64,000 bases of DNA from Candidatus Latescibacterota bacterium. GTDB taxonomy: Bacteria > Latescibacterota > UBA2968. Position 1 is the stretch's first letter. Each line of letters begins with the position of its first letter. A program made the translations under genes and the position numbers. The stretch lies in the NCBI GenBank assembly GCA_965222605.1, contig OZ244960.1:3968001-4032000 (forward strand), read 5' to 3'. The notes under the pieces were generated by a model. The model ran no database searches. It was not told the origin of the DNA and saw only the letters and a list, made by a program, of their open reading frames with translations. Shown piece after piece: positions 6,488 through 34,568 of the stretch.

Positions 6488-9400
6488 ATGTTTAAAATCG
6501 GCACAATTTTCGACAAAAGATATCAAATCCAGGCGCACCTGGGAACCGGGGGCATGGGCGAAGTTTATCGGGTTTTGGACCTGGATCAAGACCGGGAGTG
6601 CGCGCTCAAAATTTTGAATACAATGGTGGATCAGAAGGCGGCACATCGCCGTTTTCACAGAGAATTTCAAGTGTTGAACAGACTTCAGCACCCACGCCTG
6701 GTACGCACACACACCTGGGGCTTTGCCGAAGAGCGTCCCTATTTTACAATGGAATATTTGCCCGGAAAGACATTGGAAAAAATAATTGCCGATCAAGCAC
6801 TATTAGCGCGATTCCGGGCGTCTCACTTTTTTGCTCTGGTACAACAACTTGCCGAGGGATTGGCTTATATCCACGCGCAGGGTGCGGTGCATCGCGATCT
6901 CAAGCCATCCAATATTATGGTTTTGGAAACAGAAGAGGGGATTGAGACCACAATTCTGGATCTGGGGTTGGCGAAATTCAGACATCTGCACAGCGTTTCT
7001 ATTACGCAGACGGGCGCAACGATTGGTACGGCAGAATATATGTCGCCAGAGCAAGGTAAGGGATTCTGGGTGGATCATCGATCAGATTTGTACTCATTGG
7101 GCGTGATTTTATACGAGGTCCTCACGGACGCCCCGCCCTTTTCTGGACAAAATCCCATATCTGTTATTCTGAAGCATATTCGAGAGATACCGCCCTCAAT
7201 GAGCGAAATCAATATCGCTGTTTCTGAAGAGATACAACAAGTTGTGTTAAAGTTGCTGGCAAAGGGAGCTGTTGACCGTTATCAGTCTGCAGAGGAAGTG
7301 GTGCGTGCCTTACCATCGGGGTTTGTGCCATCGGATGATGAGCAGCGCGATGTGCCCGTGAAAGTTATGCGGCCGCAATTTGTCGGGCGCGAATCCGAAA
7401 TGAAGACCTTGCACGCGATGTTGCATGATGTACAGGCTGGCGAGCAGCGCGTGGTTCTAATCTCCGGTGAGGCAGGGGTGGGCAAAACGAGATTGGTCGA
7501 AGAACTATTGGGCGATGCGCTGATCCATGATTTTCTGTGTTTGAAAGGGTCTGGCCAGGAAGAGGGGGGACAAATATACGGTGCATTGATCGATGCTTTT
7601 CAGCGGGTAAAGACGACGGATCTGGTGGGGAGAGTGCCCGATCCAGTAGAGACGGACAAGTTTTCTGTTATGGAACGTTGGTTGCAGTTATTAAAGAGTC
7701 TGCGGCAGAAACAGCCCATTGTGTTGTGTTTGGAAGATATTCAGTGGCTTGATGAATTGACATTGGAATTTTTGCAGTATGTGTTGCGCGATCCAGAACC
7801 CTGTCCATTTTTGTTATGCCTGACTTGCCGATGGTCTAATCTGGAGCCGTTTTCAGAGGAAGTTGAAAATTTTATACACAGTAATGAATTTGCTGAGGCG
7901 ACTCATATTCAGTTGGAAAATCTACCTCAAGAGGAAGTGGGGTATTTAGCGGCGTCGATGTTGGGGGAGCGGTCCATACCATCCGATGCATTGCAAGCCC
8001 TGTTCAGAGAAACGGGTGGGCAGCCCCTGTTTGTCGTGGAGGCTATGAGGACGCTGGTGAATGTCGATGTGGTTCGGCAGAATGTGTCTGACGATTGGCA
8101 GTGGGGAGAATTTCCCGAAACATTATTATCTGATGATATTTCAGAAGTTTTGTACAGGCGCATAACTGCCCTGCCTGCGGTGCAACAGCGGGTGCTGGAA
8201 TATGCCTGTGTTTTTCTGGGTGATTTTTCTTTTGAATTATTGGCTGAGATTTGGCGCGGTGATGAGTTGGAGCTATTGGATGTACTGGACGACCTCGTTG
8301 CAGAAGGGCTGTTAACGACTTATGGTGATGAAAAAGAACGGTATCGTTTTTCACAGAGTTTGTGTCGGCGGGCAATTTACGATCGCATACAAAATGTGCG
8401 GCGACGTCTGTTACATCGAGAAATTGGCAATGCTCTGGAAGATACGGAAGATGCCGAAGAACTGACGGAAGAATTGGCGGATCATTTTGCGGCGGCAGAA
8501 GAACAAGATAAGGCTGTAAAATATATGCGCCTATCAGGCAAAAAAGCATTGGCGATACAAGCGTATCGCCAGGGATTGAGACGGTTTGAGGCTGTGCGAG
8601 ACTGGACAACGAATGATGCTTTTGAATCGCAAGCGGACGCTATCGACTTTTTGTGCGATTATGCAGATGTGCTACGCAATTGCGATCAGCCCAATAGAGC
8701 ACTAAAACTTTTAGAGGAGGCAAAGGCTTTATTGCCCGATGATCGAAATGATTTGAAGGCGCGTATTTTGAATCGTGAAGGTAGTATTCACAGCGTACTT
8801 CAACATGGGGCAATTGCAGAAGAATATATGCTGGAGGCATTGCGACTTTATCGGGAACTGGATGATCTCGACGGAGAAATTCAGGCTTTGGGAGGTTTGG
8901 CTTATTTGTGTGATGTATCTGGACGGCACGAAGAAGCAATTGCGTATATGCGTCGGGAAATAGAGAAATATGCTACGCTCGGGGATGCTCAAAACAAGGC
9001 TGTTTTACAAAGGAGGGAAGGTCTGTTTGCATTGGTGGGATTTCGATTTAAGACAGCCAAATCACACCTGGAGGCGACTGTAAAAACCGCTCAGCAACTC
9101 GGACTTGAATACCACCAAATATGGGCACTCAATTTACTTGTAAGAGTTTATTTTTATCTGGGTGATCTCAACCGTGCGGAAGCCGTTTGCTATGAAGTCA
9201 TTGGTGAGTGGCAGAAGCGAGGAGTGATACACCTGGAAGCGGTAAATTTCCTCTACCTTGGGGAATTGGCATTGGAACGCGGCGATTTTGCTGAGGCATT
9301 GGAATATGCCGAGATCTCAGCAGAGCGATTTTTGGAAACATCGCGAAAAGATTATGTCTATCGCGCTTATGCGATTTCAGCAACGGCTGCTGCGAGAATG

Positions 9401-11410
9401 GGAGATGACGAAACAGCACTTGAATGGGCAGAAAAAGCCAGTGAAGGTTTACAGCAAACATCGGGTATGTACACGGGCATATTGCCCCTGGTGTATTGTG
9501 GTATTGGCGTTGCTCTGGCTAAGGCAGGGCGGATTGCGGAGGCTGAACAGGCTTTTGAGCAGGCTATTGAATGCCGAAGAGAATCCAAAGGCGATCACTG
9601 GGCGCGTGCATCGCTGATGGCAGGAGAGTTTTATCTCGAGCGCGATGATATGACAAAAGCGCAAGAGTATCTCGAAGCGGCAAAACAGGCGTTTGAAGAA
9701 ATGGAAATGTCCTACTTTCTGAGGAGAACACAGATGTTATTCAGTCAATTATCTCACGACGAAGATGGTCGCGGCAGGGATGCCGTTCCAATGTTCCAAT
9801 CAGGTGAATCTTCTCGCGGTGAGGACTTGCCTGCTATCGTGCAAGCAGGTGCCGCATCTATTTCTGAGATTTCAGTCGATACGTTGTCCGTTGATCGCCT
9901 GCGCTTGCTTTACGAGGTGAGCCGAGAATTGACTACAGAGCGCGATCTCAAGGTGCTATTGGATCGAGTTTTGGGTAATTTGTTGACTGTCTATCCAGCA
10001 GCAGAGCGGGTGCTTGTTGCAATCAAAAATGAGGCTTCGCAAGGCTTTGTAGTTGATGCGATACGTCACCACAATGTAGAAGCAGATGATTTAGAAGAAT
10101 TGAGTGGGGGTATTATTCGTCGGGTTATTGAGACAAATGAACCTGTTTTGAGCATGGATGCCCAGACAGACGACAGGCTCAATTGGTACCAAAGTGTGAT
10201 CGACTACCACATTCGGTCTGTATTGTGTGTGTCCTTATTTCATGTTGAGGAAGGTGTTATCGGTGCATTGTATGTGGATCATCGCGGCATGGACAACGCA
10301 TTTTCTGATGAAGATCAGACGTTTTTACAGGCATTTGCGAATCTGGTGAGTGTGGCACTGGTCAATGCGAGGATGCACGAACAATTGGAAGAGAAAGCAC
10401 AATATTTGCAGCAAGAGGTCGAAAGACGGTACCAGCTTGGCGACCTGTTTGGACAAAGTGATGCAATGCAGATGGTTTACCAGTTTATCGAACGCGCTGC
10501 AAAGAGTGATATCCCCGTGCTTGTACAGGGCGAAACAGGTACGGGCAAAGAATTGGCTGCGCGTGCCATACACTACAATAGCATACGCAAAGACCAGCGA
10601 TTTTTGTCAGAAAATTGTGCTGCACTGTCACCTGAGTTGTTGCAGAGTGAGTTGTTTGGGCACAAAAAAGGCGCGTTTACTGGGGCGAATGAAGATCATA
10701 AGGGGATTTTTGAGGTTGCCAATGGGGGTACGGTTTTTTTAGATGAAATAGGTGATGCCCCGCCGCAGTTGCAAAGGAGTTTGTTGCGGGTGTTGCAAGA
10801 AGGTGAAGTACGGCGTGTGGGAGAAACTGTAGATCGTGCAGTAGATGTGCGCATTATTGCAGCGACCAATCGAGACTTAAAAAAAGAAGTTGAAAACGGT
10901 TCTTTCCGTGAAGATTTGTATTACCGGTTGCATGTGATTCAGATCGATATGCCGCCTTTGCGAGAACACCTTGAAGATGTGCCATTATTGGCAGAACATT
11001 TGCTCATTCGGGCAAAAGAAGAGTCAAACAAGTCGGTTGGAGGGCTGACAGTGGGTGCAATCAGGGCGCTTACAAGTTACGACTGGCCTGGCAATGTGCG
11101 CGAGTTGGAGAATGAGATTCGGCGTGCGGTTGCATTGGCAAAAGAAGAGGGAGATATTACGCCCGATTTGTTTTCAGAAGCTGTCGGGTACGCAGTGCCG
11201 GATGCTTCTGTCGAATACCACTTGCCTGCGCAGGCGGATGCCCGCACGCAAGCAGGAGGGCGTTTACAAGATCGTATGCAGGAGTATGAGAGACGGTTGA
11301 TTCGAGACGCACTTGAGAGATACAAGGGCAATATTACGCATACGGCTAAAGAACTGGGGGTGGCACGCATTAGCTTGTATAGAAAGATCAATCGTTTGGG
11401 GTTGAGGTAG
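6488..11410 (+). CDS. Sigma54-dependent enhancer-binding activator with N-terminal Ser/Thr kinase, STAND-like AAA ATPase, TPR and GAF domains and a C-terminal Fis-type HTH
   Basis: Kinase GTGGMGEV/ALK/HRDLKPSN/DLG/GTAEYMSPE; P-loop GEAGVGKT; TPR-like helices; GAF (IRSVLCV..GALYVD); bEBP GETGTGKE, GAFTGA, FLDEIGD, WPGNVRELEN; HTH NITHTAKELGVARISLYRK. Confidence 0.93.
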   Translation: MFKIGTIFDKRYQIQAHLGTGGMGEVYRVLDLDQDRECALKILNTMVDQKAAHRRFHREFQVLNRLQHPRLVRTHTWGFAEERPYFTMEYLPGKTLEKIIADQALLARFRASHFFALVQQLAEGLAYIHAQGAVHRDLKPSNIMVLETEEGIETTILDLGLAKFRHLHSVSITQTGATIGTAEYMSPEQGKGFWVDHRSDLYSLGVILYEVLTDAPPFSGQNPISVILKHIREIPPSMSEINIAVSEEIQQVVLKLLAKGAVDRYQSAEEVVRALPSGFVPSDDEQRDVPVKVMRPQFVGRESEMKTLHAMLHDVQAGEQRVVLISGEAGVGKTRLVEELLGDALIHDFLCLKGSGQEEGGQIYGALIDAFQRVKTTDLVGRVPDPVETDKFSVMERWLQLLKSLRQKQPIVLCLEDIQWLDELTLEFLQYVLRDPEPCPFLLCLTCRWSNLEPFSEEVENFIHSNEFAEATHIQLENLPQEEVGYLAASMLGERSIPSDALQALFRETGGQPLFVVEAMRTLVNVDVVRQNVSDDWQWGEFPETLLSDDISEVLYRRITALPAVQQRVLEYACVFLGDFSFELLAEIWRGDELELLDVLDDLVAEGLLTTYGDEKERYRFSQSLCRRAIYDRIQNVRRRLLHREIGNALEDTEDAEELTEELADHFAAAEEQDKAVKYMRLSGKKALAIQAYRQGLRRFEAVRDWTTNDAFESQADAIDFLCDYADVLRNCDQPNRALKLLEEAKALLPDDRNDLKARILNREGSIHSVLQHGAIAEEYMLEALRLYRELDDLDGEIQALGGLAYLCDVSGRHEEAIAYMRREIEKYATLGDAQNKAVLQRREGLFALVGFRFKTAKSHLEATVKTAQQLGLEYHQIWALNLLVRVYFYLGDLNRAEAVCYEVIGEWQKRGVIHLEAVNFLYLGELALERGDFAEALEYAEISAERFLETSRKDYVYRAYAISATAAARMGDDETALEWAEKASEGLQQTSGMYTGILPLVYCGIGVALAKAGRIAEAEQAFEQAIECRRESKGDHWARASLMAGEFYLERDDMTKAQEYLEAAKQAFEEMEMSYFLRRTQMLFSQLSHDEDGRGRDAVPMFQSGESSRGEDLPAIVQAGAASISEISVDTLSVDRLRLLYEVSRELTTERDLKVLLDRVLGNLLTVYPAAERVLVAIKNEASQGFVVDAIRHHNVEADDLEELSGGIIRRVIETNEPVLSMDAQTDDRLNWYQSVIDYHIRSVLCVSLFHVEEGVIGALYVDHRGMDNAFSDEDQTFLQAFANLVSVALVNARMHEQLEEKAQYLQQEVERRYQLGDLFGQSDAMQMVYQFIERAAKSDIPVLVQGETGTGKELAARAIHYNSIRKDQRFLSENCAALSPELLQSELFGHKKGAFTGANEDHKGIFEVANGGTVFLDEIGDAPPQLQRSLLRVLQEGEVRRVGETVDRAVDVRIIAATNRDLKKEVENGSFREDLYYRLHVIQIDMPPLREHLEDVPLLAEHLLIRAKEESNKSVGGLTVGAIRALTSYDWPGNVRELENEIRRAVALAKEEGDITPDLFSEAVGYAVPDASVEYHLPAQADARTQAGGRLQDRMQEYERRLIRDALERYKGNITHTAKELGVARISLYRKINRLGLR

Positions 11411-11422
11411 ATGTTGGATTGG

Positions 11423-11549
11423 TGTATCATTTTGTAACAGTGTATCATTGTGTATCATTTGGCTTACAGTCTATTTATTTTTATATAAATCAGTCAGTTA
11501 TGCATATTTTATTTAGATGAACGGTTATAAGTGTATCATATTATATACA
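11423..11549. promoter_or_regulatory. Candidate upstream activating sequences (bEBP enhancer) and IHF-like site
   Basis: TGTATCAT at 11423, 11441, 11451 and 11532; three copies close as TGT-N11/12-ACA. IHF-like aatcagtcagtta at 11488-11500. Lies about 110-235 bp upstream of the -24/-12 site. Confidence 0.6.
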
Positions 11550-11657
11550 CTTATGTCTGAATGTAATATCTGTAATATACATAGTCCTTAAATTTTATCT
11601 CTTTGTTTTTTAAGCACTTGAGTATCTTCAAGTGTTTTTTTGTGCTGGGACGATTTT

Positions 11658-11673
11658 TGGCACGGATCTTGCA
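11658..11673 (+). promoter_or_regulatory. Sigma54 (-24/-12) promoter
   Basis: TGGCACGGATCTTGCA matches TGGCACG-N4-TTGCW with exact GG-N10-GC spacing. Confidence 0.9.
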
Positions 11674-11728
11674 CTATAAAAAGGGCAAACCGTTATGGCG
11701 TAGGTTTTTTCCATTACAGGAGGATAAC

Positions 11729-11890
11729 ATGGCGACGCGACGCAAGTTGAATCTGATCAATGGAACGATAGATGCAGAGGGTGGTATTTGTATGTATCGG
11801 GCGACGAACAGTTTTGAAATTGGTTGTGAACCCGGTTGGCCATCTGTTCCTCCCCTTCCCTTTCCCGATGATGATGACGATGATTTTTAG
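11729..11890 (+). CDS. Putative RiPP precursor peptide 1 (53 aa)
   Basis: RBS AGGAGG; MATRRKLNLINGTIDAEGGICMYRATNSFEIGCEPGWPSVPPLPFPDDDDDDF; first gene after the sigma54 promoter and upstream of an RRE-radical SAM gene. Confidence 0.8.
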   Translation: MATRRKLNLINGTIDAEGGICMYRATNSFEIGCEPGWPSVPPLPFPDDDDDDF

Positions 11891-11901
11891 TGAGGTGACT
11901 T

Positions 11902-12060
11902 ATGTCTGTCCAGACACTTATAAAAAAACGTGATCATTTGGCCTATCTCTCCCTACTCTATGCCATTTGGGGTAATGAAGTTCGATCTGAAGCCTTACGC
12001 ACGATGATGCATAGAATGAGCCAGAGTATAGAACAGCAATCACAGGCAACTATTGTGTAA
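11902..12060 (+). CDS. Small hypothetical protein (52 aa)
   Basis: RBS GAGGTGA; MSVQTLIKKRDHLAYLSLLYAIWGNEVRSEALRTMMHRMSQSIEQQSQATIV; below the ORF-track cutoff. Confidence 0.5.
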   Translation: MSVQTLIKKRDHLAYLSLLYAIWGNEVRSEALRTMMHRMSQSIEQQSQATIV

Positions 12061-12065
12061 ATACG

Positions 12066-12156
12066 ACTCTGCAAAACCTTGTCCCCGGACCACATCACAC
12101 AATTTTTGCGCGTTAATCGCATATCTTTGGGTTGCCAGTACAGGGTTTTGCAGAGT
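12066..12156. mobile_element. MITE-like element or long hairpin (91 bp)
   Basis: Terminal inverted repeats actctgcaaaacc (12066-12078) and ggttttgcagagt (12144-12156), 13 bp perfect and 15 of 16 extended. Confidence 0.5.
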
Positions 12157-12194
12157 TCTTTGTCGTCTTTCGTCTTATTGAGAGGGGACTTACC

Positions 12195-13631
12195 ATGATG
12201 TGTATCCACAAATGCGAAATGCATCTTTTTCAAATAGAAGAGCAAAAACAGCCTATTGTCTATCAGGTTGAGACGGGTCTGTTCTATGAATTGGATACCC
12301 TTTTTCAGGCGATTTTAGCGTGTTGCGAGGGGTTGTCTGTTTCGCAGGTTGTTCAGGTGCTGGCTGATCAATACGAGGCAGAGGAAATTGTCGAGGCTAT
12401 TGAGGAATTGGCTCAGGTGGGTTTGATTTCGGATGGTGCTCTACCTGTGGTAGCCAATGTGCCGACAACAGAAGGGGTGGCAGCCTGTGGGGCATCGCAG
12501 ACAGATCGTTTGCAGGTGTCCTTGCACGTTTCCCATACGTGCAATATTCAGTGTGCTTATTGCTTTGCCCATGGCGGGGATTACGGCGGTAAGGCGATGC
12601 TGATGCAATTAGATGTTGCCGAGCAAGCCATACGCTGGATTGTCGCCGAAGCGCAGGTGTTCGGACGGTGCCAGATTGATTTTTTTGGCGGGGAGCCGCT
12701 TTTGAATTTTCCATTGCTGAGCGAGCTTGTCCCGTTTGCCAGGTCCCTGGGAGCGCGGTTGGGTGTGCAGGTTGGTTTTGGCATTGTGACCAATGGCACG
12801 TTGTTGACCGACGAGATGAAGCAGTTTTTGGTTGATGAAAATTTTCAAATTAAGGTCAGCCTGGATGGTGGGCGTAAAACGCAGGATCGCATTCGCAAGT
12901 TTCACAATGGTTCTGGTACTTATGATGTTGTGGCAAAAAATGTACAGAAACTGACGGATGAGGTACCTGAGCGCGTGTTTTTGCAGGCTGTTATGACAGC
13001 TTATGATATGGATGAGGATCAGATTGCCAATGAGTTGCGTTCCTTGGGTACTGATAACGCGCTTGTTGGTCCGGCGGTTGTTTCACCGGATGCGCCTTAT
13101 GCTATTCGAGAAGAACATATACCCGCGTTGAAACAACAGATTTACAAGCGGAGTAGGCGTGCGCTCAAAGCCATTTTAAGTGGTGAAAAGGGTGAAGATG
13201 AAGAGTTTGATCCGAGGATTCAAAAACTTTTGACGCGCAAAAAATCCTGTCACGGGTGTCTCGGTGGCAAGCAGTATTTGGCGATTGCAGCAGATGGGTC
13301 GATTTATTTTTGCTCGAGTTTAGCCGATGCGCCCGAGTTTAAGATGGGTGATGTGTTTGCGGGTATTGACCGCGAAAAACAGCATCATTTTGATGTGGAG
13401 TTCAATGTGAATAATCGCCCTGAGTGCAAAACGTGCTGGGCACGCAACTTATGTGGTGGCGGATGTCTTTGGGAGGCACGGACAACAACGGATGATCCAA
13501 TGTCTCCGAACCCGGTTTATTGTGAGCAGACGCGCTATCGCTATGAATTGGCGATGGAAATGTGTATGGAAATAGCAGAGACGGATGAGTCTTTGTTGCA
13601 GCGACGTTATGATCTGGAAGTGGCCTCATAA
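12195..13631 (+). CDS. Radical SAM/SPASM peptide maturase with N-terminal RRE (CteB/QhpD/PapB-like)
   Basis: CNIQCAYC; FFGGEPLLN; TNGTLL; SLDG; SPASM C..G..YFC...CKTCWARNLCGGGC...C; N-terminal PqqD-like segment. Confidence 0.93.
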   Translation: MMCIHKCEMHLFQIEEQKQPIVYQVETGLFYELDTLFQAILACCEGLSVSQVVQVLADQYEAEEIVEAIEELAQVGLISDGALPVVANVPTTEGVAACGASQTDRLQVSLHVSHTCNIQCAYCFAHGGDYGGKAMLMQLDVAEQAIRWIVAEAQVFGRCQIDFFGGEPLLNFPLLSELVPFARSLGARLGVQVGFGIVTNGTLLTDEMKQFLVDENFQIKVSLDGGRKTQDRIRKFHNGSGTYDVVAKNVQKLTDEVPERVFLQAVMTAYDMDEDQIANELRSLGTDNALVGPAVVSPDAPYAIREEHIPALKQQIYKRSRRALKAILSGEKGEDEEFDPRIQKLLTRKKSCHGCLGGKQYLAIAADGSIYFCSSLADAPEFKMGDVFAGIDREKQHHFDVEFNVNNRPECKTCWARNLCGGGCLWEARTTTDDPMSPNPVYCEQTRYRYELAMEMCMEIAETDESLLQRRYDLEVAS

Positions 13632-26906: not shown

Positions 26907-26909
26907 GGA

Positions 26910-27419: not shown

Positions 27420-27883
27420 TTATACCTTCTAAATTAGCATGGATAGGAACCGTGATCCGGATATTTCTGGGGGTTATTCTCGGATGGGCTGGGGTTGTAA
27501 AAATCCGTAATCCTGAAGCATTTATTAAAATTGTGAGAGCCTACAATTTGCTACCTGAGGAATTGGGCGTGCTATGGGGAATTTTCTTGCCCTGGATTGA
27601 GCTTGTGACAGGTTTATTTTTAATTTCAGGTTTGTGGCACAAGAGTGCTGTGCTCAGTAGCTCTGGTCTTTTTTTAGCATTTGCAGCAGCAGTCGGCATT
27701 AATATTCTCCGCGGTGCAGATATCGCCTGTGGTTGTTTTGGGTTCAATGACACCAATTTGTATGTTGTGTTGTTCCAGGCCCTGGTCTTCTTGCTTTGCT
27801 GTTATTTTTTGTTTTTTCTGAAATCTACACCTTATTCTATGGACCATTGTCTTTTTACTTCTCAAAGAGGTGGACTTTCGTAA
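27416..27883 (+). CDS. MauE/DoxX family membrane protein
   Basis: RIFLG..AG..K, LPWIELVTG, IACGCFG. Confidence 0.9.
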   Translation: MIIPSKLAWIGTVIRIFLGVILGWAGVVKIRNPEAFIKIVRAYNLLPEELGVLWGIFLPWIELVTGLFLISGLWHKSAVLSSSGLFLAFAAAVGINILRGADIACGCFGFNDTNLYVVLFQALVFLLCCYFLFFLKSTPYSMDHCLFTSQRGGLS

Positions 27884-27901
27884 AGTATTCCCATGCAAAA
27901 T

Positions 27902-28002
27902 CCGCTGACAGGCCCTGGCGAGTCGAGTGTTGGCGGCAGACTGCTATCCCCGCATGAGGTAAGCAGGGGCAGTTCAAAGTGCAAGCATTTGGGAATGTGA
28001 GC
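27902..28002. ncRNA. Structured intergenic element A, copy 3 (short palindromic insert)
   Basis: ccgctgacaggccctggcgagtcgagtgttggcggcagactgc...cagttcaaagtgcaagcatttgggaatgtgagc. Confidence 0.55.
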
Positions 28003-28115: not shown

Positions 28116-29393
28116 ATGGTTTTGAGAACAGTTTTGATGATCACACAAAAATTTCCTCCTTTTAATGGTGTTGGGATTCTGCGGGTTACCAAATTCGTGA
28201 AGTATATTCAGGAGTTTGGATGGCGACCTGTTGTTCTGACTTGCAAACGAAAAGAAAATCATTTAGACGCTGTGGATGAAAAACTGTTAGATGGTGTTCC
28301 GAAAAATTTAAGCATTCATCGGGTAAATGCCCCTTCCCTGTACGACGTTTACAGACTAATAGGCGGACGGGCAAAACAAGGCTCTTTTTCTTTGTCTAAA
28401 AATTCTCTGGCTACTTTAATCCGATCCTTATTTGTACCTGACCAATATGTCGCCTGGTATTTTACGGGTGTACGTAAGGCGAAAGAGATTTTCCAGGTGG
28501 AGAATATAGACGCGATCTATTCTACATCTCCTCGTGAAACATCACATCTGATTGGACGAACGCTCCATCTAAAATATAAGTGTCCTTGGATAGCCGATTT
28601 TAGGGATCCCTGGATCGAGAAACAACACCGTCCAAAACGTATCCAGCCTCTCGAACAGTTCGAGAAGTACTTAGAAAAAATTGTGCTTCGCGATGCAGAT
28701 TGCATTCTTGCTGCCTGGCCCGGTATTGTCCGAAGTTTTGAGCCTGCTGTAGAGGAGAAATCGCAAGTTTTGACTAATGGATTTGATGAAGAAGACTTCA
28801 GAGGTCTAAAGCCTCATGTGTTCCCAAAATTCACTTTTTTGTATGCCGGATCACTTTTTAAAGAATTGTCACCCCTACCAATGTTCGAAGCATTGGATAT
28901 GCTGCTGCGAATACGTCCAAAACTACGACAAAGAATTCAATTGGTCCTCTTGGGAAGGCAAGATGCATTTATTCGAGATACGATAACAAAATACGAGTTG
29001 GAATCTTGTGTACATATCATCCCACAAATACCGCACAGAGAATGTTTGCAGTACATATTGGGAGCTGATGTATTGACTTTTTCTGTACCAGATAAACAGT
29101 GGATCCCCAGCAAAATTTTTGAGTACTTAAGAGCCAGCAGACCCATACTGGCAATAGCAGACCAGGATTCAGACGCTGTACAGATTATCGCGCGTGTAAA
29201 CCAGGGTTTATGTTTCGCAAGCCGAGATCCTGAGCATATAGCACGTTATATGTCAAATTTAGTGCGAAATCGCGAGGTTTCGGATTGTGGGATTCAAAAC
29301 AATAGGCAACTCTGGGAGTTTGAACGAAGACAGTTAGCAAAACAGCTTGCTCATACCCTTGATACGCTCGTCAATCAGGTTTATAGGAAATGA
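28116..29393 (+). CDS. Glycosyltransferase family 4
   Basis: FPPFNGVGILR, WIADFRDPW, TNGFDEED, PSKIFEYL. Confidence 0.9.
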   Translation: MVLRTVLMITQKFPPFNGVGILRVTKFVKYIQEFGWRPVVLTCKRKENHLDAVDEKLLDGVPKNLSIHRVNAPSLYDVYRLIGGRAKQGSFSLSKNSLATLIRSLFVPDQYVAWYFTGVRKAKEIFQVENIDAIYSTSPRETSHLIGRTLHLKYKCPWIADFRDPWIEKQHRPKRIQPLEQFEKYLEKIVLRDADCILAAWPGIVRSFEPAVEEKSQVLTNGFDEEDFRGLKPHVFPKFTFLYAGSLFKELSPLPMFEALDMLLRIRPKLRQRIQLVLLGRQDAFIRDTITKYELESCVHIIPQIPHRECLQYILGADVLTFSVPDKQWIPSKIFEYLRASRPILAIADQDSDAVQIIARVNQGLCFASRDPEHIARYMSNLVRNREVSDCGIQNNRQLWEFERRQLAKQLAHTLDTLVNQVYRK

Positions 29394-30073
29394 ATCGTAT
29401 AAATAAAATGTTAAGAGTGTTGTGTGCCCTGAGTTTTCTCATAGTACTATTACCGCTCGTGATCTTGGGCATTGTATTGATCTGGATAGAGACGCGGGAT
29501 AGATGCTTGTTCAAGCAAATCCGAGTGGGAAAAAACTTAAGACCCTTTACCATTTATAAACTTAAAACCATGATTGATCGTAAAAAAGCAGATCGAAATG
29601 ATCTCTTCGTGGATAATGAAAAATATATTACCAAAAGTGGACGTTTGCTCAGGATGTCAAAGATTGACGAAATACCGCAACTTTGGAATATCATCAAGGG
29701 GGATATGGATTTTGTGGGTCCGAGGCCGATAAGAGAACCACTACATAATTTTTATATGAAAAATATCCCAAACTTTGAACTCCGATACCAAACTTTACCC
29801 GGCCTTACGGGAATCTCTCAAATTGTAGATCCTGAGAATACAGATCGCAGTCTCGGCCTATCTTGTGACTGTTACTACATCAATAACAAATCTGTAAAAT
29901 TAGATGTTCAGATCATTGTATCGACGATCGTATATTTGATGTACAGTCTATCACGAGAAATTTACAACTGGACAACTGCAAGATGGCTCAGGCGTATCAA
30001 TGAGGATAATATATCCAACATTCAAGCTGATAATTTGCAGTATATGAGTTTGTCAAAATGGAAACGTCAATGA
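29390..30073 (+). CDS. Bacterial sugar transferase (polyprenyl-phosphate phosphoglycosyltransferase)
   Basis: FKQIRVG, YKLKTM, IDEIPQLWNIIKGDM, VGPRP, PGLTG. Confidence 0.92.
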   Translation: MNRINKMLRVLCALSFLIVLLPLVILGIVLIWIETRDRCLFKQIRVGKNLRPFTIYKLKTMIDRKKADRNDLFVDNEKYITKSGRLLRMSKIDEIPQLWNIIKGDMDFVGPRPIREPLHNFYMKNIPNFELRYQTLPGLTGISQIVDPENTDRSLGLSCDCYYINNKSVKLDVQIIVSTIVYLMYSLSREIYNWTTARWLRRINEDNISNIQADNLQYMSLSKWKRQ

Positions 30074-30074: not shown

Positions 30075-31187
30075 ATGAAAACAGTGATCAGTAATATTGA
30101 ATACTATCAGCCTGCACAAGGCAAACCGAAGCATATGTTTTGCAGTAGTACTTTCTTAAACATTTTGGCCTATCACAATCCATTTTTTAAAAAGCCTATC
30201 CTGTATGATCTGCTGAGAGTTGGATGGACGTTTTGGTATTCCCCAAAAAAGAGAAGACTGAGTTCAATGTATGTAAAGAATGGCTTTTTATTTAATTTGA
30301 ATTCTCTGTTCTCTGTAAACTCGGAGTCCATATTCTGCTCAGACTTAAGTCACTTTAGAGAGTGTTTGAGAGAACGGCTTATTGGAAAACGGCCATTATA
30401 TGTTGATCTATCCGGGGCACCCGTTTTGGTAGGCCAGGAGCTTAAGTTCACAGATCTACACCTGAAACATTTCACATATGTTGTCTTTGGTTTCGACAGC
30501 AAAAATGATACTGTCTTACTTTTGACAAACGGAGCTTCAATAGTCGGTTGGGCATCAATTTCTGAGGTTGCGAGTAGGCTTAAGAGAAATGAAATTGTAG
30601 ATTTTATGAATCCTTTAGACTTACAGATGCCTGATGAAGAAAAACTTGCGGACTTTTTTTTGCGAAAAATAAGAAGCAACTTCAAAACCTGTGCTACATT
30701 AGGCACTTTGAGGAGGATAAATCACTATGTATGGGGAAATATTACGAGGAAGTATATCCCTATAGATTTGCCTCCAGTAAGGACTCTGAGTGGCATAGGG
30801 GGTATAGAAAAATTTTCGAAAGATCTCGTACACTTATATGGATTAGAAAGGAATGAGATAAACGATTTTTCAAAGCATACATGCCGGAAGATAATAGGAT
30901 TCAGAGATGAACGAGCGATATTTATGAGGTCATTATTGGGATTAGCTCGTTTTAACAAGAAAGATCATATCATAAAAGAAGTTGAATGTCTATCGCGAGA
31001 TTTAGAAATAGCTTGGGTATCCTTAGCTAAATCTTTTGCCAGAGTTTATATGTCAGAGAGGAAGGATTCTGTAGATCGAATACAGGAGGAATTGCTTCAA
31101 ATAAAGAGCCGAGAGAAGGCCCTCCTACTACTGATGCAGGATTTTTTAAAAAAAGGGGGATTAGATGGTATGAATCTTTACGAATGA
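30075..31187 (+). CDS. BtrH_N-like (papain-fold) putative acyltransferase
   Basis: N-terminal Cys (HMFCSSTFLNIL), P.YVD, HF.YVVFGFD His segment, and a helical C-terminus with SGIGGIEKF resembling BtrH_N/DUF4872 proteins. Confidence 0.5.
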   Translation: MKTVISNIEYYQPAQGKPKHMFCSSTFLNILAYHNPFFKKPILYDLLRVGWTFWYSPKKRRLSSMYVKNGFLFNLNSLFSVNSESIFCSDLSHFRECLRERLIGKRPLYVDLSGAPVLVGQELKFTDLHLKHFTYVVFGFDSKNDTVLLLTNGASIVGWASISEVASRLKRNEIVDFMNPLDLQMPDEEKLADFFLRKIRSNFKTCATLGTLRRINHYVWGNITRKYIPIDLPPVRTLSGIGGIEKFSKDLVHLYGLERNEINDFSKHTCRKIIGFRDERAIFMRSLLGLARFNKKDHIIKEVECLSRDLEIAWVSLAKSFARVYMSERKDSVDRIQEELLQIKSREKALLLLMQDFLKKGGLDGMNLYE

Positions 31188-31250
31188 ATCATTAGAGTTT
31201 GGAGTTGTCCAATCAGTCTCTATTATTTTAACTAAAAATAGGATTTGACC

Positions 31251-32543
31251 ATGAAAAAGAAAGTAAAAATAGCTTATATCTTTACACGGTTTCCCTGTTT
31301 GACTGAATTGTTTGCTTTACGTGAGGTAGAAGAATTGAGAAGATTGGGAATTGATGTTCAGCCTTATTCTTTAAAGAGGGTGCGGGTAGAAGATATGCAA
31401 GATCCTCTCATGAAATTTTGGTTTGATAAAACCATATATATTCCTTCTTCCTCCAGTTTTCAATGTCTTATATCGCTGTCTAAGAGCGGTATTAAGCACT
31501 TTAGAATTTTCTGGGGAGGTCTCATAGTTAAATGTATCTCTGGAAATATACGAAACTTAAGATATTTGTTTTCTTCGCTTGCAGTATTTTCTCAGGCTAC
31601 GCATATAACACAAGAGTTAGTAAAAACAAACGTTATGTGGGTCCATGCACATTTTGCGACCAACGCTACAACTGTTGCCTGGATAATCAAGCACCTATCC
31701 GGTATCCCTTATAGCTTTACTCCTCATGCCTATGATATATTCAAACGAGAATTCCAAACGGGATTTCTCAGGACAAAGATTCAAGATGCCCATTTTGTTG
31801 TTGCGATCTCTCAATTTAACAAATTTTTCCTTCAAAATTTTAGCGGACAAAAGTCTGAAAATGGCCAGTATCCCGTGATTCATTATGGTATTGGAGCTGA
31901 TTATCTACACAGACAATTAAAGAAGGATTGTAAAAATCAGTTCCCTATTATTCTTTCTATAGCCCGATTAGTAGAAAAGAAAGGTCATGAATATTTAATT
32001 AGAGCATTGGCCACAATTAAACAACAAGCATTGGATTTTAATTGTATAATGGTCGGTGATGGACCTTTGCAGGAGCAGTTGATAGATCAGCTAAAAGAAA
32101 AGAAATTGGAAGATCGAGTCGAATTTGTAGGGAAGTTTTCTCAAGTCCAGGTGAAGGATATTTTGGAACAAGCAGATATATTTTGTCTTCCGTGTATTCA
32201 TGCAAGCAGTGGTGATAGAGACGGCATACCTGTTGTTCTTATGGAAGCGATGGCAAAACGCCTCCCCGTGATTTCAACTCATATGAAAGGAATCACCGAG
32301 TTGATCAGGTCTGGAGATAACGGGTTGCTGGTGCCAGAGAGAGACGAGCAAGCACTTGCAGATGCGTTAATGACTCTACTAAAAAGTGCTAATTTGAGAT
32401 CGCGTTTGGCTGAAGCAGGTTATAATACGATTCATGAATATTTCAACTCAAAAAAAGAAACGACAAAATTGTATCAAATATTTCTTAAGCAACTAAAAGA
32501 AAAAAATACTAAGGATGATGATACGAAACGAATATGGACTTGA
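31251..32543 (+). CDS. Glycosyltransferase family 4 (WcaL-like)
   Basis: RFP..TELF..RE, HAHFA, HAYDIF, ARLVEKKG, GDRDGIPVVLMEAMA. Confidence 0.92.
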   Translation: MKKKVKIAYIFTRFPCLTELFALREVEELRRLGIDVQPYSLKRVRVEDMQDPLMKFWFDKTIYIPSSSSFQCLISLSKSGIKHFRIFWGGLIVKCISGNIRNLRYLFSSLAVFSQATHITQELVKTNVMWVHAHFATNATTVAWIIKHLSGIPYSFTPHAYDIFKREFQTGFLRTKIQDAHFVVAISQFNKFFLQNFSGQKSENGQYPVIHYGIGADYLHRQLKKDCKNQFPIILSIARLVEKKGHEYLIRALATIKQQALDFNCIMVGDGPLQEQLIDQLKEKKLEDRVEFVGKFSQVQVKDILEQADIFCLPCIHASSGDRDGIPVVLMEAMAKRLPVISTHMKGITELIRSGDNGLLVPERDEQALADALMTLLKSANLRSRLAEAGYNTIHEYFNSKKETTKLYQIFLKQLKEKNTKDDDTKRIWT

Positions 32544-32713
32544 CCCTGAATATCGTAAAATGTCGCCATTATGGGCTTATTTATACAAATCCTCGGTTGG
32601 ATAATAATCAACTGGTCGGTTATTATGGTTCAGATTATTTCACGCAAGGCACTTATAACAAAGACGACCAGCACAGGGCTTACTACTATGGAGTTGTCTT
32701 TGGAGGGTTAAGT
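32534..32713 (+). pseudogene. Remnant of a zinc-ribbon class I methyltransferase N-terminus
   Basis: IVKCRHYGLIYTNPR...YYGSDY matches the CxxCGLxYxNPR pattern with the second Cys replaced by Tyr; no SAM domain follows. Confidence 0.5.
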
Positions 32714-33616
32714 ATGAAAGTTGTATTTCTCGGCGGTGGTCAATGGGGACTTTTCCCGTTAAAAATGCTTCTCCAAAAAGAGCACGTTACTGGCATTGTA
32801 GTGCCCGTTAAAGATCCTTTGATCGTCCGTGAAGGTCTGAAAAATCGGATTCCAACCTGTAAAATCGTCGATAGGCACGAGCCACAGTTTGAAGCTTTTC
32901 TGAGGGCCTGTGAGCCTGATCTCATTATTGTAGCTGGCTTTCCTTTTATTCTTCCTCCAAAAATTCTCGATATTCCCTTTAAAGGAATCATCAACCTTCA
33001 TGGCTCTTTGCTACCCGCCTACCGGGGTCCCCAGCCGCTGGAATGGCAAATTATCAATGGCGAGAAAATCTCGGGGGTCACAGTACATTTCATAGACGAA
33101 GATATCGATTCAGGGGATATTGTGATGCAAGCAGAAGTACCCATATTGGAAACCGATACACTTAAAACTATGGCATTGAAGCTGGGCAATAAGGGGTGGA
33201 GACTCCTTGAAGACACATTAGCGAGATTCAAAAAAGGGTCTGTTCAAGGTATCCCTCAGAAACACCATCTCGCATCTTATTATGGAAAAATAACGGAAGC
33301 AGACCGCAAGATTGATTGGACATCTGGTCGAATGGCTATTTTTAATCTTGTACGTGCGTTGCCTCCATATGCACCGGCTTTTTCGGATTTGGAAAATGTA
33401 AGATGCCATATTTACCGTTTGCGCTCCGTGACAAGCAAACCTTCAGGTATGCCCGGGCAAATTCTATGTCAACCATCGGTTTCGCATCCTATGATCATCA
33501 GCACGTTAGATGGAGATGTCGCTGTATTTAAATATACTTTATCCGGACGTAACGGTAGAAAACTTTCCCGAGAAACGGCTAATGACATTCTAAGCCCCGG
33601 AAGTTTTTTCTTATAA
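32714..33616 (+). CDS. Formyltransferase (Fmt/sugar N-formyltransferase family)
   Basis: RBS GGAGG; INLHGSLLPAYRGPQP, GVTVH, IDSGDI. Confidence 0.9.
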   Translation: MKVVFLGGGQWGLFPLKMLLQKEHVTGIVVPVKDPLIVREGLKNRIPTCKIVDRHEPQFEAFLRACEPDLIIVAGFPFILPPKILDIPFKGIINLHGSLLPAYRGPQPLEWQIINGEKISGVTVHFIDEDIDSGDIVMQAEVPILETDTLKTMALKLGNKGWRLLEDTLARFKKGSVQGIPQKHHLASYYGKITEADRKIDWTSGRMAIFNLVRALPPYAPAFSDLENVRCHIYRLRSVTSKPSGMPGQILCQPSVSHPMIISTLDGDVAVFKYTLSGRNGRKLSRETANDILSPGSFFL

Positions 33617-33695: not shown

Positions 33696-34568
33696 TTGAT
33701 GATTTGTGTTTACAGAAAATTGCTTACGACTCTTTGTTTTTTTTCTTACGCTTTAGGAGCTTCTTGGGCTAGCGAGATAGTATTTTGCGAGATGTTTATC
33801 TTTGATTTTAGATCAAACAATAGGGTGTACGAAGAATGGCTCAGCGGGTTCGTATTCTGCGTCCTGGTATTAATTCTCCCTATCCTTTCATTTGTTATGC
33901 CCAACATTTGTCTATCATCAATGCGGTGGTTGGTGCTGACATCGGGAATGATTTTTCCCTGCTGCTTCATATTGCTAATATCATTCTCCAATGTGTGTTT
34001 TATTCTCGATTATCCTATCCGTATTGCTTCCACGCCAAGATCCGCGGATGTGATCGATATCGGTGGACAGGGAAGTTTTCCCCTGAGTTTTGATTTGGGT
34101 GCCGATCTTTTTCATGCAGGCTTAGCCTCAAAAATAGTGACATTCGTCCCTAATAGAAAACCCTATTCTTCGTATTTACACCAGACCCTTTCAATACCAC
34201 CTGATGCCATTATATGGGCGAGGGGTAAGTCTAATAACACATTAATAGAAGCATCCTCACTCGCCAAATTGTGTAGGGACAATTCCTGGGATAGCGTAAT
34301 CCTGGTCGCAGACTCCCATCGTATGTTTCGGAAATCCAGGGCTTTTATTAAAGCAGGTGTTCCGATAGTTTATCCTGCAAATGTTACTGGAGATCAACAG
34401 TGGATGGCTCCTGCGAAGTTTATCGGTGTGAGTCAACAAGCCTATTGGGATTTAAATGGTTTCGAATGTGACTGGTTTATTCTTCAGCAATTTCGGCACA
34501 AGATGGTGATCCGGACACTGCACGAATATTTGGGAATTATTTTTTACGCGGTCATTGGATACATTTAG
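33696..34568 (+). CDS. YdcF/ElyC (DUF218) family membrane protein
   Basis: ADVIDIGG, SNNTLIEA, ILVADSHRMFR, LHEYLGIIFY; start uncertain. Confidence 0.7.
   Translation: MMICVYRKLLTTLCFFSYALGASWASEIVFCEMFIFDFRSNNRVYEEWLSGFVFCVLVLILPILSFVMPNICLSSMRWLVLTSGMIFPCCFILLISFSNVCFILDYPIRIASTPRSADVIDIGGQGSFPLSFDLGADLFHAGLASKIVTFVPNRKPYSSYLHQTLSIPPDAIIWARGKSNNTLIEASSLAKLCRDNSWDSVILVADSHRMFRKSRAFIKAGVPIVYPANVTGDQQWMAPAKFIGVSQQAYWDLNGFECDWFILQQFRHKMVIRTLHEYLGIIFYAVIGYI

Follow-up and report, generated by a model that had tools for sequence, protein, structure and literature searches.

A composite accessory region in a sponge-type Latescibacterota-like genome with two candidate ribosomal-peptide modules, the second a probable variant of the TIGR04066 system

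The locus described here lies in a 64-kb stretch of DNA, referred to below as the window, from Candidatus Latescibacterota bacterium (contig OZ244960.1, assembly GCA_965222605.1), and its closest described counterpart is the TIGR04066/CLI_3235 set of Clostridia. CcpM, the radical S-adenosylmethionine (rSAM) enzyme of that set, is TIGR04068; the acyl carrier protein (ACP)-related protein and the precursor correspond to TIGR04069 and TIGR04065. Maturation of quinohemoprotein amine dehydrogenase involves the rSAM enzyme QhpD, the subtilase QhpE, the peptide QhpC and the exporter QhpF, and enzymes of the CteB/QhpD clade form Cys-to-Asp/Glu/Thr cross-links; CteB is presumably the protein of PDB entry 5wgg. 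The butirosin side chain passes from the ACP BtrI to the acyltransferase BtrH, and BtrH-type enzymes and the condensation domains of non-ribosomal peptide synthetases (NRPS) both transfer a carrier-protein-bound acyl group onto an amine. DgcN (PDB 7xrj) is, to our knowledge, the only characterised DUF1611 protein. PMC10731318 describes the SacP23 cluster of Paenibacillus polymyxa, in which a CLI_3235-family precursor is encoded together with TIGR04068, TIGR04066 and TIGR04069 proteins and with a subtilase as a protein of its own; the role guessed there for the TIGR04066 protein is 'immunity', and a bacteriocin active against methicillin-resistant Staphylococcus aureus is reported. PMC12993501 gives antiSMASH labels 'ranthipeptide' and RRE (RiPP recognition element, where RiPP denotes a peptide made by ribosomes and modified post-translationally) for clusters in metagenome-assembled genomes of sponge Latescibacterota. 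Genome-mining mentions but no biochemical study of the TIGR04066 fusion protein or its ACP were found in the full-text literature, the search of which did not extend to subscription journals and supplements.

Each sizeable open reading frame (ORF) between positions 6401 and 37162 of the window lies on the plus strand, and the listed genes form one co-oriented run of ~31 kb with short gaps. The GC fraction is 0.36–0.48 at 14–36 kb, versus 0.51–0.56 in the flanks, which carry a TRAP-type (tripartite ATP-independent periplasmic) transporter upstream and a CoA-transferase downstream. The nearest public loci belong to sponge-type Candidatus Latescibacterota. We read the run as a composite accessory region of a sponge-type Latescibacterota-like genome, comprising two independent ribosomal-peptide modules with sugar-assembly genes in and around the second, and assign this reading a probability of roughly 0.55. 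Comparison with relatives splits the run into three parts: module 1 (6401–13885), module 2 (17489–27883 together with the BtrH-like gene at 30075) and the sugar genes. Compared loci carry L-numbers and compared genomes G-numbers, both from relatives or further genomes unless stated; L044 is a second locus of the window's own genome, L014–L016 are clostridial, and T4066 is used as shorthand for the TIGR04066/DUF1611 domain. The genes listed in a preliminary description of this DNA are all present and co-oriented, as identified with Pfam and NCBIfam or, for the methyltransferase and the BtrH-like protein, through Atlas look-alikes. The sole protein of the run that exceeds a curated NCBIfam cut-off is the nucleotide-sugar dehydrogenase (TIGR03026, 307.7 versus 189.8 bits). 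Rfam families and tRNA genes were not found in the 64-kb window. The close genomes are 85–93% identical, so that shared gene order among them is weak evidence.

The elements of module 1 are the following:

6401–11410 (probable ATG at 6488), plus strand: enhancer-binding protein of 1669 residues with Pkinase, AAA_16 (STAND ATPase), TPR, GAF, Sigma54_activat and HTH_8 domains (Pfam)
11421–11546, plus strand: three to four copies of the repeat GTGTATCAT, a repeat family partly conserved in L007 and L027
11612–11637, plus strand: terminator-like hairpin of 11 pairs with a T run, closing the activator gene and kept in 3/3 aligned loci
11658–11673, plus strand: predicted sigma-54 promoter TGGCACGGATCTTGCA, with perfect −24/−12 elements, ~55 nt upstream of pepA
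11729–11890, plus strand: pepA, putative precursor of 53 residues with a GGAGGA ribosome-binding site ahead
12195–13631, plus strand: rSAM/SPASM maturase of the ranthipeptide/QhpD clade with an N-terminal PqqD-like RRE

The activator, promoter, pepA and rSAM gene occur together in L007, in L027 and at 1.579–1.584 Mb of the window's own genome. The activator copies that adjoin pepA and the rSAM gene at these three sites are 78–80% identical to that of the window; in the own-genome copy the activator, pepA and rSAM enzyme share 78%, 82% and 90% identity with those of the window. This second copy is followed by unrelated genes, which encode a 305-residue protein without a Pfam family, then a truncated activator and then a UvrD helicase. 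Five relatives encode homologues of the rSAM enzyme, 87–90% identical, with between one and three copies apiece. In G002 the copies are at 0.907 and 4.63 Mb, at least 190 kb from the module of the second precursor, pepB (0.69–0.71 Mb); in G001, where the pepB module is on C49, they are on contigs C35 and C33. An rSAM gene is absent from the 10 kb upstream of the pepB module in G001, G002, G003 and G006. Given the second copy beside unrelated genes and the separate sites in relatives, the activator-pepA-rSAM unit is an autonomous module.

The activator matches Sigma54_activat with an E value of 1.7e-73 and has a Fis-type helix-turn-helix (HTH_8). Among NCBIfam models, its C-terminal part resembles NifA/NorR and its N-terminal part a TOMM kinase/cyclase, the latter at 275 bits and below the cut-off. 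The promoter TGGCACGGATCTTGCA is one of only two perfect sigma-54 matches in the 64 kb and the sole one in the run, and its GG-N10-GC pattern is conserved in 3/3 loci (the window, L007 and L027). A scan of the 64 kb allowing up to two mismatches gave no excess of sites (35 versus 37.2 expected), so that only the perfect site counts. An AAA+ enhancer-binding protein and a −24/−12 promoter, the two marks of a sigma-54-dependent operon, are thus both present, and activation of pepA by this protein is predicted; the GTGTATCAT repeats are candidate binding sites for it. The dedicated activator that the preliminary description assigned to the whole locus is therefore upheld by the perfect promoter just upstream of pepA but, as pepA alone has such a promoter, only for this unit. 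For the second perfect sigma-54 match in the window, TGGCACGGTGTTTGCA at 50742–50757, the preceding ORF ends at 50739, just ahead of the match, and the next one, 50828–51946, starts ~70 nt after it.

The pepA family comprises 103 homologous clusters, 86 of which have exactly one Cys. A conserved N-terminal part is followed by one conserved Cys, an invariant VPPLPFP and a poly-Asp tail (consensus M.T-RRKL.LING.I-D.EG.I..Y....S.E..C......VPPLPFP.DDDD.D.F). The ribosome-binding site and the upstream hairpin are kept in the two aligned relatives, L007 and L027, and pepA matched no Pfam or NCBIfam family. The neighbouring maturase contains a CNIQCAYC motif (CxxxCxxC) and matches Radical_SAM (5.9e-15), PqqD (6.2e-4) and Fer4_12 in Pfam. 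It aligns end to end with the SPASM maturase models SCIFF (260.9 bits, cut-off 425), QhpD (257.2, cut-off 453) and PapB (221, cut-off 340), and with PDB entry 5wgg over residues 20–454 (2.5e-60). Its score against the CcpM model (TIGR04068) is 169 bits (cut-off 500), below its SCIFF and QhpD scores. With its 103 clusters, single Cys, poly-Asp tail and giant sigma-54 regulator, the pepA family belongs to a compact, multi-copy rSAM module of sponge symbionts.

Between pepA and the rSAM start lies a 17-nt inverted repeat, 94% complementary (12066–12082 and 12140–12156), which could set the precursor-to-enzyme ratio. An ORF of 52 residues at 11902–12060 is not conserved in the nearest relative and was rejected as a gene. 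The 313 bp that include this ORF and the inverted repeat are replaced by 55 bp in L007.

Module 2 proper contains the following genes:

17489–17782, plus strand: ACP (ACP models 5e-8; PP-binding 0.0021, weak; serine in an LDS motif)
17757–19724 (probable start 17805), plus strand: QhpE-like subtilase fused to a two-domain TIGR04066/DUF1611 module (Peptidase_S8 1.4e-23, DUF1611 7.5e-9)
19756–20478, plus strand: membrane-anchored thioredoxin-fold protein, or redoxin (AhpC-TSA 2.9e-9, Redoxin; hydrophobic N-terminus and CQPC in the translation)
20624–20848, plus strand: pepB, putative precursor of 74 residues with a AAGGAGGTGA ribosome-binding site ahead and the leader MKTLTKP...IYGYE
21091–23586, plus strand: duplicated permease of the MacB/FtsX type (FtsX and MacB_PCD in Pfam; ADOP family, DarB-like, in NCBIfam)
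23716–24807, plus strand: DUF5128 six-bladed beta-propeller, probably a lipoprotein (Pfam 1.2e-15; signal and lipobox-like N-terminus)
25128–26906, plus strand: fused ATP-binding cassette (ABC) exporter, an MsbA/HlyB-like half transporter (ABC_membrane, ABC_tran)
26910–27419, plus strand: rhodanese with an N-terminal membrane anchor (Rhodanese 2.4e-19)
27416–27883, plus strand: MauE/DoxX membrane protein (MauE 2.6e-25)

DNA homology with L002, L004, L005 and L009 starts at 17333–17343, and that with L004, L005 and L009 ends at 27846–27939. Genes for the ACP, the fusion and the redoxin are present in 7/7 close loci reaching there, as is pepB (likewise 7/7). The order of genes within the module is fluid, with the permease and propeller swapped or duplicated among relatives: the permease follows the propeller in L002, L004, L007 and L009 and is absent in L001 and L006. 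L001 has a second pepB and a sulfotransferase gene. By a modest balance of probability, module 2 represents a distant variant of the TIGR04066 'peptide maturation system', itself uncharacterised.

The NCBIfam scores of the fusion protein are 144.2 bits against QhpE (cut-off 165) and 122.3 bits (E 2.2e-35) against TIGR04066 (cut-off 200), and its homology to TIGR04066 is clear. In the alignment the catalytic residues of the subtilase domain are conserved (H59 and S203 invariant, D24 and N109 nearly so), and the GK of the P-loop is nearly invariant. The AlphaFold2 model, built from a 62-row alignment, has a mean predicted local distance difference test score (pLDDT) of 95.9. A Foldseek search with this model gave as best PDB matches the DUF1611 structural-genomics entries 2g0t and 2obn, with TM scores on the query (TMq) of 0.65–0.69, and also 7xrj, titled N-acetyltransferase DgcN (E 3.9e-13, TMq 0.58). 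The ACP gene overlaps the start of the fusion ORF, and the ACP serine is conserved in 14/14 aligned ACPs of such loci. The ACP-related model TIGR04069 was not among the matches of this ACP at E ≤ 10. The best NCBIfam match of the ABC exporter is MsbA (464 bits, cut-off 602), followed by bacteriocin_ABC (337) and PglK (209). A paralogue of the MacB-type permease, 73% identical, is encoded at 3,632,643–3,635,150 of the same genome, where it adjoins a leucine-rich-repeat protein and two sulfatase-like genes without genes of the peptide modules.

The pepB family is represented by 10 distinct sequences in 8 genomes. In an alignment of 18 sequences M1, K2, L4, K6, I17–E21, C52 and C60 are invariant and the core is otherwise variable; the leader follows the pattern MK.L.K(P/T)...(I/V)YGYE, and the strong ribosome-binding site is kept in relatives. 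No NCBIfam or Pfam family matched pepB, the precursor models included, and pepA and pepB have no common sequence. The view that the two short peptides are genuine is thus borne out, both being conserved families. Complex prediction for the fusion protein with pepB gave a score of 0.45 (runs 0.45, 0.53 and 0.00) and at most 0.10 for the three controls, which lends weak support to an interaction; agreement between runs is at least 0% of contacts, and the partner pLDDT at least 38. The mark used for such predictions was reached by 58 of 80 solved complexes and by 2 of 110 mismatched pairs, and at scores of 0.60 or less by 7 of the 80 and by both mismatches.

The T4066 domain is widespread. A search with the C-terminal 366 residues of the fusion gives 1166 representative relatives at E ≤ 1e-3; the count at E ≤ 1e-30 is 411. 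As most relatives are 600–680 residues long, with the match starting near residue 250–300, the subtilase fusion is the usual form. Of the 168 Latescibacterota genomes searched, 87 encode the domain, the highest copy number in any of them being 7. The own genome holds a second such system at 2.335 Mb, L044, whose fusion protein is 39% identical and whose gene order is AraC response regulator, HlyD, ABC, five small proteins, fusion, ACP (1.2e-10) and a BtrH_N protein (4.2e-6; 27.5 bits versus a cut-off of 29.7). L012 likewise contains the fusion, an ACP and a homologue of this BtrH_N protein (2e-46). In 20 further Latescibacterota loci searched with phmmer at E ≤ 1e-3, an ACP gene was found in 11 (and seen by eye in 3 more), a BtrH-like gene in 10 and an rSAM gene in 2. 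The suggestion that ACP, fusion and BtrH-like genes form a recurrent set is therefore sound. Widespread as the fusion with its carrier protein is (411 clusters, about half of the Latescibacterota genomes searched), no biochemical study of it was found.

Neighbouring genes were tallied by Pfam family in 143 co-oriented ORFs of at least 75 residues within 5.5 kb of the fusion genes (ABC, HlyD and FtsX ORFs excluded). Among the 25 most frequent of 140 families are PP-binding (14), Rce1-like (9), Yip1 (7), BtrH_N (6), AhpC-TSA (5), response regulator/AraC (4), Condensation (3), MauE (3) and DUF5128 (3). The Rce1-like and Yip1 counts point to a bacteriocin-like context. The three condensation-domain ORFs are neighbours in loci L075–L094. 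In the corresponding clostridial tally, 92 ORFs from 7 loci, ABC_tran (12), Radical_SAM (6), Peptidase_S8 (6), DUF1611 (5) and PP-binding (4) are among the 25 most frequent of 71 families.

Three further features of these loci were observed. In L083 a 900-residue NRPS-like protein (10958–13660, with NRPS models over residues 363–893) is encoded directly after the ACP, and ORFs of 897 and 904 residues hold the corresponding place in L088 and L091. Proteins of ~100–120 residues that combine a CxxC...CxxC zinc ribbon at the N-terminus with a membrane segment at the C-terminus are encoded between the ABC exporter and the fusion gene, in four copies in L044 (13317–15279; 2.337–2.339 Mb of the own genome) and L079 and also in L077; they could be immunity proteins or substrates. 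Secreted leucine-rich-repeat proteins occur at the edge of L023 (823–2343, by Pfam), L004 (19845–21365) and L044 (5496–6809, by repeats in the translation). Eukaryote-like repeat proteins are common in sponge symbionts.

A leader motif M..KP..(A/G)Y..E was found in 13 ORFs of 33 T4066 loci, including the clostridial L014–L016, with no occurrence in reversed-sequence controls; of the 13, the one overlapping the fusion gene is probably spurious. This recurrence beside fusion genes in two phyla tells against the possibility that the run is not a peptide natural-product locus at all, the small ORFs being incidental and the subtilase, together with the redox proteins and exporters, working in the biogenesis of the envelope or of a surface glycan. 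Envelope functions are indeed conceivable for all of the sugar, exporter and thiol-redox genes, and the region is low in GC and varies in gene content between close genomes. Nonetheless, we consider this explanation highly improbable: pepA has its 103 conserved clusters, a dedicated promoter and an adjacent RRE-bearing rSAM enzyme, and in pepB the ribosome-binding site, the leader and two Cys are retained next to a variable core. PMC10731318 also reports antibacterial activity for a peptide of the CLI_3235 family encoded in a cluster of this type.

The genes that lie between the rSAM gene and the ACP gene are:

13652–13885, plus strand: ORF of 77 residues, of uncertain gene status (87% identical in L007; no Pfam or NCBIfam family)
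13903–14796, plus strand: probable class I methyltransferase of 297 residues, Methyltransf_24-like (Atlas 0.96, 25/30 matches in that set)
14832–15833, plus strand: DUF354 protein (Pfam 1.2e-10)
15974–17344, plus strand: nucleotide-sugar dehydrogenase (TIGR03026)

In L027 a 302-residue methyltransferase-like gene begins within a few bases of the end of the rSAM gene, and no counterpart of the 77-residue ORF was detected; a relative's RNA contig joins position 13624 to 13903, skipping this ORF. The 297-residue protein has no significant match to the hidden Markov models of Pfam or NCBIfam; its gene is present in L027 at 85% and absent in L007. The DUF354 protein is 96–97% identical in L001 and L007, and its sole NCBIfam match is weak (BFO_1060 family glycosyltransferase, E 5.2e-4, 19 bits versus a cut-off of 200).

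The last 76 nt of the dehydrogenase ORF (17263–17338) are a relic of the helix-turn-helix region of an AraC-type response-regulator gene, with 65–67 of 78 columns identical (~85%, one 2-nt gap) to L005 (positions 9113–9190), L002 and L001. An AraC-type response regulator is encoded directly upstream of the ACP in L002, L004, L005 and L009 (the domains being read in the L044 homologue). By genome, such a regulator directly precedes the ACP in G001, G002, G003 and G006, whose rSAM homologues are at other places. On the evidence of these sequences the pepB module normally has its own AraC-type response regulator, only a relic of which is left in the window. The relic at the dehydrogenase 3' end implies that the DUF354 and dehydrogenase genes arrived by insertion between regulator and ACP. 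In L001 the order is an intact regulator, a second dehydrogenase-like gene, DUF354, dehydrogenase, sulfotransferase and then ACP.

These data can be set against the proposal of the preliminary description that the locus is a single pathway, with both precursors under one activator, in which the same peptide or peptides would be cross-linked by the rSAM enzyme, acylated by the ACP system and glycosylated through the sugar genes. All genes are co-oriented with short gaps, and in the window, L007 and G004 the ACP module directly follows the activator-pepA-rSAM unit; counted by genome, modules 1 and 2 adjoin in three of the seven that are readable there (the window, G005 and G004). No terminator is predicted between the rSAM gene and the downstream genes, so that read-through from the sigma-54 promoter is possible, and with the native AraC regulator destroyed this promoter may have taken over the pepB module. 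Radical_SAM is also found in 6 of the 92 clostridial neighbour ORFs. However, the unit occurs at 1.58 Mb of the same genome without any T4066 gene, in G002 it is separated from the pepB module by at least 190 kb, in G001 the two are on different contigs, and in four genomes the 10 kb upstream of that module contain no rSAM gene. Only 2 of the 20 other Latescibacterota loci have an rSAM gene, the window's enzyme fits SCIFF and QhpD (261 and 257 bits) better than the clostridial CcpM (169 bits), and the two precursors share no sequence. With module 1 present in a second copy, the relatives' rSAM genes elsewhere and an AraC regulator before the ACP, the single pathway is not supported and is improbable. 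Two independent modules therefore remain the preferred reading.

The downstream part of the run consists of sugar genes, among which one candidate acyl-transfer gene is placed:

28116–29393, plus strand: GT4-like (glycosyltransferase family 4) glycosyltransferase a (Glycos_transf_1 7.6e-9; 87–92% identical in L001, L006, L023 and L024)
29390–30073, plus strand: small polyprenyl-phosphate phosphoglycosyltransferase (Bac_transf 3.9e-47; EPS_sugtrans 169.8 bits, below the cut-off)
30075–31187, plus strand: BtrH-like protein of 370 residues, a putative carrier-protein-to-amine acyltransferase (C23, H132 and D141/D145 invariant)
31245–32543, plus strand: GT4 glycosyltransferase b, EpsE/WcaL-like (Glycos_transf_1 2.8e-41; EpsE 195 bits, below the cut-off)
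32534–33616, plus strand: formyltransferase resembling Fmt and the ArnA N-domain (Formyl_trans_N 1.4e-32; fmt 150 and ArnA 145 bits, both below the cut-offs)
33696–34568, plus strand: DUF218 protein (Pfam 1.2e-7)

The sugar block follows MauE in 5 of the 6 close genomes readable there (the window, G004, G007, G001 and G002); in the sixth, G005, a deletion cuts the ABC gene after ~144 residues and reaches the CoA-transferase. The content of the block varies. G002 has another set of glycosyltransferases, G001 and G004 an extra GT2 (glycosyltransferase family 2) gene and G001 a cytidylyltransferase-like gene, the latter two assignments being putative and drawn from N-terminal motifs. In L023 a DUF218 gene (Pfam 9.6e-7) lies between MauE and the sugar genes, and in L024 that place is taken by a 219-residue ORF with a near-identical N-terminus. 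The BtrH-like gene is inside the block, 1 bp from the phosphoglycosyltransferase gene and 57 bp from that for glycosyltransferase b, with the same placing in L001, L006 and L023; in L024 it adjoins a glycosyltransferase gene. Sugar genes have thus, as far as gene order and the relic can tell, been inserted on both sides of module 2, and one acyl-transfer component is embedded in the sugar block. The alternative of the preliminary description, a mosaic of a peptide cluster with glycan genes, is largely right, the embedded component being the twist that it lacked. Its statement that Wzx, Wzy and Wzc are missing also stands: neither these nor a flippase, polymerase, ligase or chain-length regulator is among the Pfam matches of ORFs of at least 150 residues in 6401–37162.

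The sugar genes and the carrier chemistry could be coupled. The ACP/BtrH-like chemistry would then have been recruited to the sugar pathway, with the BtrH-like enzyme transferring an ACP-bound acyl or peptidyl group to an amino sugar within a polyprenyl-linked glycan; alternatively, glycosylation would fall on the peptide. The MsbA-like ABC protein would flip the conjugate. Such an arrangement is consistent with the position of the BtrH-like gene between the phosphoglycosyltransferase and glycosyltransferase b genes in four loci and beside a glycosyltransferase gene in L024, with the entry of sugar genes at several points of the run (the regulator–ACP interval and the stretch from MauE to the BtrH-like gene), with the retention of the block in 5/6 close genomes despite its differing content, and with MsbA as the top score of the ABC protein. 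In L081 a weakly matching MurG/MGT-like glycosyltransferase, and in L080 a 376-residue ORF, is encoded between the ACP and the BtrH-like gene, and in L008 the fusion gene is preceded, at a distance of 82 bp, by a GT4 gene; in L011 GT2 and MraY-type genes are 7–8 kb away. Canonical BtrH acylates an aminoglycoside amine from an ACP.

Other observations tell against coupling. Homologues of the GT4, phosphoglycosyltransferase, dehydrogenase, DUF354 and formyltransferase genes are found in 0/20 further loci (phmmer, E ≤ 1e-3), and glycosyltransferase families are absent from the 25 listed in either neighbour tally (of 140 Latescibacterota and 71 clostridial families). The linkage of sugar and peptide genes on which the preliminary description wanted to rest the question therefore holds among close genomes, where gene order is weak evidence, but not across the phylum or in the listed families of the seven clostridial loci. 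The run contains no aminotransferase for an amino sugar and no oligosaccharyltransferase or ligase. The 370-residue protein is also far removed from BtrH_N proteins encoded in other T4066 loci. In the Atlas, the clusters nearest to it have BtrH_N and DUF4872 domains (0.96–0.97), and its homologues are confined to 13 clusters of at least 86% identity, themselves lacking Pfam domains. Recruitment of the carrier chemistry in the specific forms set out above is possible but rather unlikely. That the product of the sugar genes meets the ACP/BtrH chemistry or the peptide in some way has a somewhat better prospect, slightly short of an even chance; otherwise these genes would make a separate surface glycan.

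The composite reading has weaknesses of its own, besides the adjacency of the two modules and the possible read-through already given. Every model score of the rSAM enzyme, as well as the TIGR04066 and QhpE scores of the fusion protein, falls under its curated cut-off, and an ACP-loading enzyme other than the DUF1611 domain is not visible in the run. The BtrH-like call for the 370-residue protein comes from a language-model look-alike search and a sub-threshold Pfam match to DUF4872 (0.0016), with no match to BtrH_N; against the BtrH_N proteins of L044 and L012 the similarity is weak (pairwise E 0.17; hhalign probability 4.7), BLASTP and hhalign comparisons with those of L044, L012 and L011 gave a short motif match only, and the single-sequence AlphaFold model, at pLDDT 36.7, is uninformative. 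With these points included, the best reading is still that of two juxtaposed peptide modules, the second a variant of the TIGR04066 system, with coupling to sugars plausible.

A working scheme can be outlined for the two modules. The activator would switch on the sigma-54 promoter at 11658, as its position and conservation suggest, and so drive pepA and the CteB/QhpD-like rSAM/SPASM enzyme. This enzyme would bind the conserved N-terminal part of pepA through its RRE and, by analogy with its clade, would most likely form a thioether between the single conserved Cys and a residue in or near the VPPLPFP-poly-Asp tail. In module 2 the subtilase domain may remove the pepB leader near IYGYE. The DUF1611 domain, which has the fold of the acetyl-CoA-dependent N-acetyltransferase DgcN, may charge or read the ACP thioester, and the BtrH-like enzyme or a condensation domain may form an amide, in the simplest case by N-acylation of the freed pepB peptide. 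This proposal of leader proteolysis and acyl transfer draws on the recurrence of BtrH-like and condensation partners and on the fusion of the DgcN-fold domain to a leader protease. The two invariant Cys of pepB may be handled in the periplasm by the membrane-anchored redoxin, the rhodanese and MauE, and the ABC and MacB-type exporters would carry the product out. The DUF354 protein, dehydrogenase, two GT4s, phosphoglycosyltransferase and formyltransferase would build a short polyprenyl-linked glycan.

A bolder proposal, to which we give only a small chance, is that TIGR04066 systems represent a new kind of peptide tailoring, in which the DgcN-fold domain loads the carrier and a BtrH-like or condensation enzyme joins the load to an amine; in this locus a polyprenyl-linked sugar would be acceptor or donor, and the MsbA-like ABC protein would flip a glycan- or acyl-glycan-peptide product. 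No description of a peptide class joined to a glycan or acyl-glycan by carrier chemistry was found in the literature searched. The analysis gives the TIGR04066 system a testable logic, with a DgcN fold, a kept carrier serine, recurring BtrH-like and condensation partners and a leader motif across two phyla. The window, as a variant with TIGR04066 genes amid sugar genes, is a natural place to test the joining of ribosomal peptide and glycan by carrier-protein chemistry, and the best place to test whether the TIGR04066 enzyme trio touches sugars.

Contigs from sponge metatranscriptomes (3 runs, 2 studies) are 90–99% alike to the window over the rSAM, methyltransferase, DUF354, dehydrogenase and ACP genes as well as over parts of the fusion gene and over the end of the redoxin gene together with the pepB leader; they are contigs of relatives and indicate neither strand nor transcription. 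None covers 11400–12047, the pepA region, in the three runs, and an uncovered part proves nothing. One RNA-library contig (run X2, depth 337) joins position 20488 back to 17344 with 24 other letters between, and the ACP, fusion and redoxin unit (~3.1 kb) may be tandemly repeated or otherwise ordered in some relative.

The run ends with one further gene:

34571–37162, plus strand: TPR and GWxTD protein of 863 residues, the last low-GC gene before the CoA-transferase flank

At least seven paralogues of this protein, with 57–83% identity, are encoded elsewhere in the own genome (0.244–0.267, 2.10 and 3.10 Mb), five of them packed within 23 kb at 0.244–0.267 Mb, which marks an expanded family.

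Compared with lipid-linked polysaccharide loci of the exopolysaccharide (EPS) or PglC type, the run shares the Bac_transf protein, GT4s, nucleotide-sugar dehydrogenase and formyltransferase; unlike them, it has no Wzx, Wzy, Wzc, ligase or oligosaccharyltransferase in 6401–37162, and its sugar genes are split by a peptide module. Two features resemble the butirosin pathway and DgcN: in L044, in L012 and in 10 of 20 other loci a carrier protein adjoins BtrH_N-type proteins, and the DUF1611 fold matches DgcN (E 3.9e-13), whereas the window lacks the other butirosin enzymes and its 370-residue protein is a remote BtrH look-alike. The Qhp system is approached by the rSAM score of 257 bits against QhpD, by QhpE as best NCBIfam match of the S8 domain (144 bits), and by the presence of a cytoplasmic subtilase and an ABC exporter. 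Both scores are nevertheless below the cut-offs of 453 and 165, the rSAM enzyme and subtilase belong to different modules in the window, and quinohemoprotein dehydrogenase subunits are not among the Pfam matches of the run. Ranthipeptide/SCIFF systems of the CteB type resemble module 1 in the full-length match over RRE, radical SAM core and SPASM, in the thioether-forming best NCBIfam models and in the small precursor directly upstream. They differ in that pepA has one conserved Cys instead of six in ~45 residues, a proline-rich poly-Asp C-terminus and a dedicated activator of 1669 residues combining kinase, STAND, GAF and sigma-54 domains, and all equivalog cut-offs are missed.

The TIGR04066/CLI_3235 system is the closest of all. 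The conserved module of the window departs from it in lacking a CcpM-type rSAM enzyme, in a fusion score of 122 bits against a cut-off of 200, and in a pepB and an ACP that match neither the precursor nor the ACP-related models. The window further adds a BtrH-like enzyme (elsewhere an NRPS condensation domain), a redoxin, rhodanese, MauE, propeller and MacB-type exporter, with sugar genes interleaved. What the two have in common is a subtilase accompanied by a TIGR04066/DUF1611 domain, a small carrier protein encoded next to it, export by an ABC protein and a precursor that contains Cys and whose leader carries the motif KP...(A/G)Y..E.

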